Source: Octopus vulgaris (taxonomy: Eukaryota). From it: a DNA stretch of 64,000 nucleotides. The translations under genes were made by a program, and so were the position numbers. Where the stretch lies: assembly GCA_951406725.2 (NCBI GenBank), contig OX597824.1, positions 27,900,001-27,964,000 on the forward strand, read 5' to 3'. The number at the start of each line of letters is the position of its first letter. Position 1 is the stretch's first letter. Shown here piece after piece: positions 14,521-15,834 of the stretch. The notes beneath the pieces are model-generated. The model ran no database searches, was not told the DNA's origin, and worked only from the letters and a program-made list of their open reading frames with translations.

Positions 14521-14907
14521 CGCAACCACTATGTTTTGGATTCACGTTTATGTATAAATATTCATAATCGAGTACTTCGTATATACACACTCAGTCATAT
14601 GAGCATAAATAACCAGTCACACCGACACGCACTCACACACACATGTACACAGAAACACAAATATATTCACATGGGTTAGTTACAAGCACATACTCGCACA
14701 TAGATAAACACACATTAATTGTTGAAGGACAATTGACATGAATCTTCCTGTATAGGTAACATCGATTATAGAAAATAAGATACATAAATTTATATACCCG
14801 GTCACAGGCATATACAAGACTACGTAGATTTATACATACGTACATAAATACATATATCCATATATAAAGAATATATATATATTTCATAGCATTTTTTCCG
14901 ATGGCCG

Positions 14908-14968
14908 GATAACTGAAGAGATGGCGGCGTGGATTTCCACCTCGGCATCCGAAACTCGGAGTTTTATC
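14908..14968 (+). ncRNA. Type I hammerhead motif, family F4, in a ~120-bp TA-flanked insert (14884-15006)
   Basis: gataa-CTGAAGA-gatg...gtgga tt tccac...catc c-GAAAC-tc g ga-GTT-ttatc; perfect 5-bp stem I and long stem II. Confidence 0.75.
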
Positions 14969-15003
14969 ATGGCTAGCGAATAATAGTCACATCTTACATT
15001 TAC

Positions 15004-15056
<53 letters not shown>

Positions 15057-15057
<1 letters not shown>

Positions 15058-15644
15058 CAATTTAGGAATGGCCTTAACAGGCCATTCGTCCACTAGACAG
15101 AGCAGCCATAACTCCAACCGCCAAGTAATGTAATTCGGAAATAGGTGAAAAATTAAAAACGTTTACCCTAATTCATCTTTTAGACGATGCATCGTTTCTG
15201 CGTTTTTAATGATAGACCAGCTTAATTAAATTAAATTAAGCTAATCTACCATAGGTCACGCTTCGTCAGTAAAGAAACCTTTGGTAGAGGCAAATATACA
15301 CGAGGCTACTGCATCGAAGCCTCTGGAATATCTGTCTTAAAATTTTCGAAGACCAGCGCAATCGCGCCAACCTTATCAGCAGCAAATATAAACTGCCGAT
15401 TCAATTTCAGAATTAGTCAGAAAATAATCAATTAATCAATTTAGGGTAGAAAAAATTCGATAGAAATTTATCACTACCAGCGGCCCAGTGGAAAAGAAAA
15501 ATAGTCATGAGACTAAAATGTAAATATATAACAATTTAGGAATGGCCTTAACAGGCCATTCGTCCACTAGACAGAGCAGCCATAACTCCAACCGCCAAGT
15601 AATGTAATTCGGAAATAGGTGAAAAATTAAAAACGTTTACCCTA
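15057..15644 (-). mobile_element. Partial-tandem hammerhead element (474-bp unit plus 114-bp identical direct repeat), Penelope pLTR/retrozyme-like
   Basis: 15057-15170 is identical to 15531-15644; TA tracts on both sides; internal hammerhead; no ORF. Confidence 0.8.
15177..15274 (-). ncRNA. Type I hammerhead ribozyme, family F5
   Basis: Minus strand cttta-CTGACGA-agcg..[atggtagattagcttaatt/aattaagctggtctatcat]..cgca-GAAAC-gatgcatc-GTC-taaaag; 12-nt palindromic stem III acgatgcatcgt. Confidence 0.85.
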
Positions 15645-15834
15645 TACATATATATATATGTATGAAGGGACGGGACATGAGCAACTGGTCAGAGTGTTGC
15701 ACTTCAAGTCCAAGACCGAGTAGTACCTTGTGGTCTTCAAAACACCAGGTCTTGTTTGTTGTTTACCAAATATTCTGCCATGTTTCTTCTTCCATTGCTG
15801 ATGCACTCTCGAACGCTAATCAGCCCACGACCAC

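Follow-up and report, generated by a model that had tools for sequence, protein, structure and literature searches.

A 5'-truncated, non-coding hammerhead retrozyme of Octopus vulgaris, its family's two fixed 3' ends, and a modest excess of 5' ends near the predicted ribozyme cut

The window, by which we mean the whole 64,000-nucleotide stretch of Octopus vulgaris DNA that was analysed, carries on its minus strand a short retrozyme insertion set between two TA-rich tracts. Positions within the retrozyme unit are numbered as nucleotides after the predicted ribozyme cut (c1 to c474), and the features of the locus are as follows.

15006..15056, no strand assigned: (TA)n tract at the 3' end of the element, taken as the target from the sequence and from the ends of sister copies
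15057..15644, minus: whole insertion, 1.24 retrozyme units, from c13 round to c126 (sequence and family comparison)
15057..15170, minus: 114-bp repeat, second copy, whose 3' end is fixed site A (c126), the putative start of reverse transcription
15176..15277, minus: predicted type I hammerhead (sequence and compensatory changes; cleavage is a prediction)
15277-15270 and 15182-15176, minus: hammerhead stem I, 5' strand and 3' strand respectively
15269-15263, 15262-15199 and 15198-15195, minus: hammerhead core CUGACGA, stem II and GAAA respectively
15182..15183, minus: predicted cleavage bond, after the C of GUC (the triplet ends at 15183)
15184..15195, minus: stem III, a perfect 12-nt palindrome predicted to pair between two ribozymes (dimer fold -20.1 kcal/mol)
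15209..15252, minus: stem II extension of 19 bp with three G-U pairs, 15252-15234 pairing with 15227-15209
15431..15441, minus: fixed site B (c225-226), a 3' end in sister copies, unused as an end here
15531..15644, minus: 114-bp direct repeat, first copy (c13-c126), whose 5' edge is the truncation point (self-comparison)
15645..15663, no strand assigned: short TA-rich tract at the 5' junction, the other half of the target (sequence)

Self-comparison within the window aligns 15057-15170 with 15531-15644 without a mismatch at a period of 474, and the match extends beyond the 114-bp boundary to 15050/15524 because TA is common to unit and target there. Read on the minus strand, the insertion starts at c13, passes through one full round and ends at c126, so that 12 nt separate the predicted cut from the first base of the element; since the first TA may belong to the target, we give this distance as 12-14 nt. 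The unit is 36% GC with all six reading frames closed, and is thus non-coding; Pol III boxes were looked for within it and none were found. This copy is single-armed and 5'-truncated with one ribozyme, its direct repeat contains none, and the length of the repeat differs among sister copies. The usual unit of the young subfamily is 475 nt, the 474 nt seen here reflecting a private 1-nt deletion. The original prediction of a 474-bp unit followed by an identical 114-bp repeat, of a minus-strand start 12 nt downstream of a GUC cut, and of a hammerhead with a 12-nt palindromic stem III and a stem II extension of about 19 bp is borne out in its coordinates and numbers, whereas its description of the core as canonical is correct for the core letters only, the base of stem II being an A-A.

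Two other features of the window were recorded. On the plus strand at 14874-15005 lies an unrelated second hammerhead-like repeat (5-bp stem I, CUGAAGA core, GUU triplet), whose end falls in the (TA)n tract that also borders the retrozyme, the two being arranged tail to tail; contig depth is far higher over this repeat than over the retrozyme, and it is therefore likely to belong to a very abundant family. Between 26000 and 28000 the window is GC-rich (46%) and contains a number of open frames, 90-200 codons long and overlapping one another, which may mark the start of a gene or a further repeat.

In principle the 114-bp stretch could have been collapsed or duplicated during assembly. Assembled contigs of eight runs have no joints inside the element and mark no start or end sites there; such contigs cannot show RNA ends, strand or circles. 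The junction between units at 15531 is bridged by contigs from other runs (records 14, 23 and 30). The flanks of the insertion are bridged by none of the listed records from other runs, so for this one locus the assembly is the sole witness. For the family an artefact is excluded by the matches described below, by the absence of matches to backward controls, by dozens of other loci with 1.1-2.2 units and differing 5' ends, and by the contigs that cross the unit junction, and we consider this explanation of the present copy hardly credible.

The predicted ribozyme has canonical letters throughout its catalytic core, and the cut, which we take to lie after the C of GUC, was placed by hammerhead consensus. 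Stem I consists of four A-U pairs and two more past a bulge. The base of stem II (10.1/11.1) is an unpaired A-A throughout this lineage (A-C or A-A where the lineage of the present copy is set beside its sisters), and is G-C in sister lineages. Between sister families, 7 of the 15 core pairs are changed on both sides (stem I contributing four, stem II two and stem III one), a covariation that rests in effect on two or three lineages, so that figures obtained by shuffling overstate the support. Among the lineages the letters of stem III take three forms, each of them a perfect palindrome, as is expected of dimeric hammerheads according to part of PMC4209133, and the core together with the stem III palindrome is retained in 184 of 194 ribozymes, some loci being counted twice. 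Two diverged subfamilies (L216 and L238) have a CCGA core variant in place of CUGA. Rfam gave no match in the window at the gathering score, and none of the 19 weak hits near the element was to a hammerhead model. The unit folds far better than shuffled sequences (z -6.4), and the catalytic fold is predicted to lie about 8 kcal/mol above the best fold. We infer a ribozyme that would be kept by selection but would be weak as a monomer.

To place this copy among its relatives we searched an assembly of 2.8 Gb in 227 contigs. The element itself gave 87 matches, 88-99% alike (40 scored of 1,781 candidates). Three exact patterns were then used so as to avoid picking copies by their 5' end: the site A end pattern (93 matches, all places taken), the stem III and cut pattern (195 matches, the first 100 matches listed being taken) and the site B end pattern (61 matches, of which 38 new places were taken). 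Each of the three patterns read backwards gave 0 matches. The first two pattern sets and one locus from the element search comprise 102 insertions after removal of duplicates, and the B-selected set adds 37, for 139 in all. Duplicates of one junction were dropped (L003, L007, L089 and L090; L055, L084 and L086-L088; L240), as were repeat fetches of one place and L245-L246, which lie outside the B pattern, before anything was counted; L185, with the same junction as L155 but other flanks, was also dropped, perhaps wrongly. L155 and L185 lie on different contigs with unrelated flanks and have an identical arm-to-arm junction, which would reflect a hotspot for such junctions or the renewed copying of a two-armed insertion.

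The copies are dispersed, tandem arrays reach 6.9 units, and insertions of the young subfamily differ from one another by 2-3%. A sister retrozyme family (L193-L206; 2,574 candidates at first look) has a 470-nt unit about 75% alike, the canonical G-C at the base of stem II, and the same two 3' ends.

The 3' ends of the family are fixed. The 102 insertions have 163 arms between them, of which 85 stop at site A (c126), 65 at site B (c225-233) and 13 elsewhere, so that 150 of 163 end at one of two sites 100 nt apart, and (TA)4 or longer adjoins 137 of 141 scored arm ends. Just over half of the insertions (53 of 102) are head-to-head, and of these 47 are A+B, one is B+B, five have one other end and none is A+A. 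The ratio of A to B means little, because the first search pattern favours site A, but the pairing is still informative; in the B-selected set (n = 37) an A partner was mapped in 21, another partner in 3 and none in 13, and pairing of B with B only was seen in 0 of 37. A shared motif at the two sites that changes in step between the 474 and 470 families was considered and rejected, as a third lineage breaks the pattern, and the sites have a loose motif in common and nothing further. It is thus the 3' ends (c126 and c225-233), and not the 5' end, that are set by the mechanism, and the 114-bp repeat is the stretch from a fixed start of copying to a stop reached after one full round.

This anatomy has a close counterpart in the same genome. 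A young autonomous Penelope-like element (PLE; L134 993-5352, L135-L153) has an 811-codon reverse transcriptase-endonuclease frame with an RVT_1 match and, in its translations, a C-X4-C-X2-C linker ahead of the GIY-YIG motif, by which linker we assign it to the Neptune type. It has two fixed ends about 40 nt apart, targets (TA)n, and pairs A with B in 11 of 12 two-armed copies by hand count. As this element leaves a matching footprint, an enzyme of its kind is likely to copy the retrozyme. In work on the anole PAc element, a Penelope-like enzyme starts internally at two sites that lie downstream of the hammerhead and define the genomic tail, and ribozyme cleavage is dispensable for insertion in vitro (PMC11167929); pseudo-LTRs, inverted 5' copies, one-sided tails and a (TA)n bias are described for Penelope-like elements in part of PMC8557442, and the (TA)n preference of the octopus family matches that of Neptune and Naiad. 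The tail of the retrozyme, at 100 nt, is longer than the roughly 40 nt of the local Neptune-type family and the 30-40 nt given in papers. The Neptune-type family (L134-L153) is very young, many copies having an identical-scoring 811-codon frame after an overlapping 495-codon frame, and its 3' region contains a minimal hammerhead-like motif in which U3-A8 replaces C3-G8.

Among 50 PLE-bearing loci, 10 other loci and the window, we found no autonomous element that shares the sequence of the unit (26,916 candidate PLE places in the genome, 109 scored). The 20 loci of the young Neptune-type family and five other PLE 3' regions, compared by eye or by profile, have no likeness to the unit, and the best outside match (E 1.5e-4) is a 43-nt piece lying outside the PLE. 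A frame combining reverse transcriptase and GIY-YIG is absent from the unit and none is continuous with any arm. With no sequence-sharing partner found, the enzyme is assigned from its footprint.

One apparent partner was rejected. Six loci join the unit at c27 to a piece of open reading frame with a DKG motif, but the join is head-to-head, the piece is part of an older Poseidon-like family, whose other copies are 88-95% alike to it and in which 20 loci show no likeness to the unit, and the six loci are duplicates of one event. The chimera itself (L085 2036-2595; also L055, L084 and L086-L088) consists of a site-B arm head-to-head with a 350-bp Poseidon-like ORF piece, lies between TA tracts and is present also in contigs of runs X2 and X7, which suggests that the enzyme is able to take a second, unrelated RNA.

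An alternative is that an autonomous PLE left the unit as a solo pseudo-LTR, with repeats generated by local unequal crossing-over in the manner of satellite DNA and without a retrozyme RNA cycle. A pseudo-LTR route of this kind is proposed in a recent preprint (10.64898/2026.07.22.740005). Local change does occur, as duplicates of one insertion on contig C31 (L002, L003 and L007 against L089 and L090; L002 and L089 compared for the junction) share that junction and differ by a whole unit, with B arms of 765 and 289 nt, a unit gained or lost after insertion. However, no arm in 139 insertions runs into a matching ORF (the one chimera being with an unrelated element), both arms of inverted insertions stop at fixed RNA sites, and the dispersed copies sit in unrelated (TA)n tracts, so that we regard this route as very unlikely.

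The 5' ends behave differently from the 3' ends. Arms were scored as runs from the fixed start toward the 5' side and stops were compared per base at risk, counting only past the pattern that had selected each locus; six complex insertions, arms with other 3' ends, the copy in the window and chimera L085 were left out. Single-armed copies of the first set have 8 stops in c1-35 against 2.5 expected (P 0.004), a value that becomes 0.095 if any 35-nt window is allowed, the width having been chosen after the data were seen. Two-armed copies of the first set show no excess (9 against 8.4). The B-selected replication set has 12 against 4.8 in c1-35 (P 0.004), mostly in two-armed copies, with 8 against 1.8 in c1-15 and no stops in 22 entries to the interval just past the cut. 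Pooled and stratified by arm length, c1-35 has 29 stops against 16.1 expected (P 0.002), an excess of about 1.8-fold, although bins at c71-105 and c281-315 are likewise about 1.5-fold high. Only one of 197 arms starts exactly at c1, the 5' ends are otherwise scattered, and 115 of 144 passes (about 80%) continue through the cut site. Four of the pooled ends fall at c1-c5, within stem I, and eight at c9-c14, just 3' of it; positions in diverged subfamilies are accurate to a few bases.

Mapping the 5' ends of the copies against the cut, the check proposed with the original prediction, therefore comes out weakly in its favour: the ends are non-random and the excess was replicated, but it is weak, starts at c1 are rare and most passes read through. 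Nearness of 5' ends to the cut is a real but modest tendency of the family, about half of it being expected anyway. With 29 stops against 16.1 expected, one start in 197 at c1 and read-through of about 80%, the odds that the present copy lies near the cut by chance are about even.

A rival reading is that the 5' end near the cut is chance truncation by the Penelope-like enzyme and the ribozyme itself a weak passenger. Of the 29 ends in c1-35, 16 would be expected without any effect; the G-C pair that sister lineages keep at the foot of stem II is missing from the youngest lineage, which spread all the same; and eight of nine Xenopus retrozyme dimers remained uncleaved in vitro (10.64898/2026.07.22.740005). 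Against this stand the reappearance of the excess in an independently chosen set and the retention of core and palindrome among the ribozymes noted above, and we think this reading unlikely.

Copying passed once round the unit, for which the template would have had to exceed one unit in length or be circular; arms of more than 126 or 226 nt call for a multimer left uncut, for a circle, or for a jump from one cut end to another. All 109 scored cases have a gap-free cut-site junction, many of these cases having been selected by a pattern that spans it. Copies resemble their partners within an insertion more than they do copies in other insertions in 31 of 32 arm pairs and in 35 of 35 unit pairs (one of the latter nearly tied), the units and arms within an insertion being two to five times closer than between insertions, and this likeness indicates that both arms came from one source. 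A circle, a freshly homogeneous array and later gene conversion would all fit. The 23 rare letters that the copies of an insertion all have in common (T>C 5, C>A 5, A>T 4 and A>G 4 among them) show no clear bias of the kind expected from RNA editing. None of 72 young arms contains two intact ribozymes, even though young arms of up to 2.1 units exist, whereas two or more are present in 11 arms of older subfamilies. The young subfamily accordingly has a source that is either absent from the assembly or a circle.

It is possible, though not the reading we favour, that the same enzyme repeatedly copied a covalently closed circle of 474-475 nt and that the excess of 5' ends arose by stalling at the foot of stem I (c1-c8). 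The frequent passes through the cut with gap-free junctions, the arrays of near-identical units, the rare letters common within an insertion and the young arms just described are all in keeping with a circle, and the eight ends just 3' of stem I are in keeping with stalling. In mussel, coral and axolotl it is the circular form that is abundant (part of PMC7229834). On the other hand, the stem II hairpin, which is much stronger, has few stops (ratio 0.4-0.5 at c351-420), four ends lie inside stem I, and a circular template offers no end at which to stop. For the excess by itself, templates whose 5' end had been cut by the ribozyme are the likeliest explanation, at about even odds; stalling at the folded ribozyme is a lesser possibility, and a sampling effect a slight one. 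The excess of 5' ends just short of the cut may be a mark that ribozyme activity has left in the genome.

We propose, with a probability of roughly 0.8, that the copy in the window is a 5'-truncated, non-coding retrozyme of 474-475 nt likely written into (TA)n by a Neptune-type Penelope-like enzyme. In this model the enzyme would nick the (TA)n target and reverse transcription would begin inside the RNA, at c126 or about c226; where both DNA strands prime, each would use one site, giving a head-to-head insertion. For the present copy, synthesis would have started at c126, crossed one ribozyme site that was either uncut or religated, and, after a complete circuit of the unit, ended with 12-14 nt still to go to the following cut site. 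The family structure, the fixed ends, the target, the Neptune-type likeness, the 5'-end excess and the helix covariation are observed in the sequences, whereas the enzyme, the form of the template, cleavage and expression of the retrozyme are inferences. The original prediction had called the locus the footprint of reverse transcription of a self-cleaved multimeric or circular RNA; reverse transcription of a multimeric or circular RNA, in a young retrozyme of the Penelope-associated kind, is supported, but the ends that are fixed are the 3' ends, and nearness of the 5' end to the cut is modest.

We found no support for ranking this copy as the best candidate for activity. With its single ribozyme it cannot release a unit-length RNA, and it lacks the two consecutive ribozyme-bearing units by which the preprint recognises active copies. 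Its private deletion has one match in the genome against 52 for the common form, and is thus found nowhere else; a late mutation or an assembly error could, however, hide daughters. The identical repeats show recency only, and the copy is probably inactive as a source, a dead end.

In its general properties the element belongs to a type that is already known, the protein-free animal non-LTR retrozymes (PMC7229834, in part; 10.64898/2026.07.22.740005), and it has the marks of that class that we tested: a low-GC, non-coding tandem unit with a type I hammerhead in each, a palindromic stem III, dispersed copies from monomers to multimers, and Penelope-like elements in the same genome. The unit of 474-475 nt exceeds the 170-400 nt given in part of PMC7229834 and lies inside the 51-972 nt of 10.64898/2026.07.22.740005. 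The octopus family differs in its long stem II extension and A-A stem II base, in that no target duplication is readable in (TA)n, and in being known here from the genome alone.

With Neptune-type PLEs (PMC8557442, in part) and the anole Poseidon element PAc (PMC11167929) the family has in common a partial-tandem pseudo-LTR, an inverted 5'-truncated arm, a one-ended tail, two internal starts downstream of a hammerhead, and AT-rich or (TA)n targets; unlike them it has no ORF and a tail of 100 rather than 30-40 nt, and it has no likeness to the local Neptune- and Poseidon-type families tested. Non-autonomous Chlamys elements such as MRC1 (PMC8557442, in part) are similarly protein-free, with pseudo-LTRs, head-to-tail multimers and microsatellite targets. 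These Chlamys elements generally resemble an autonomous partner at their 3' end and mostly have no canonical hammerhead, whereas the octopus retrozyme has the ribozyme and a partner was not found by sequence. Plant LTR retrozymes (PMC4918200) are also non-coding, hammerhead-bearing retroelements with a terminal direct repeat; they are summarised in PMC7229834 and 10.64898/2026.07.22.740005 as having a type III ribozyme in both LTRs, a primer-binding site, a 4-bp duplication and a Gypsy partner. The octopus ribozyme is of type I and its direct repeat is free of ribozyme and varies in length with truncation, so that neither a type III ribozyme nor two LTRs of fixed length are found.

Mapping of insertion ends against the cut is absent from the main text of 10.64898/2026.07.22.740005 and from the covered part of PMC7229834. 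We found no paper that maps retrozyme ends in this way in literature that leaves out most subscription journals, and among the matches listed for cephalopod hammerhead ribozymes none concerns retrozymes by its title.

The single locus is in itself of little importance, and what the octopus family contributes is an excess of 5' ends close behind the cut that is modest but was replicated. We tentatively suggest, as a possibility rather less than probable, that a dimeric Penelope-like enzyme primes both (TA)n strands, at two different fixed sites 100 nt apart on RNA of one origin, while a deliberately weak, dimer-dependent hammerhead cuts only some junctions, in which case the 5'-end pile-up would be a readout of cleavage in vivo and the loss of the stem II base pair in the youngest lineage would be tuning, not decay. 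If so, most cDNAs would run through to give tandem arrays and a measurable share would fall off just before the cut, so that the genome would record how the hammerhead cleaves a Penelope template, something that was undetectable in the anole study.

Mobilisation of animal retrozymes by Penelope-like elements has been proposed (part of PMC7229834) and so far argued from co-occurrence and pseudo-LTR likeness (10.64898/2026.07.22.740005), and the anatomy of the insertions described here is a more direct line of evidence. The family supplies two exact start sites and a target for testing in vitro, and the replicated excess of 5' ends amid extensive read-through is a testable handle on the role of the hammerhead.
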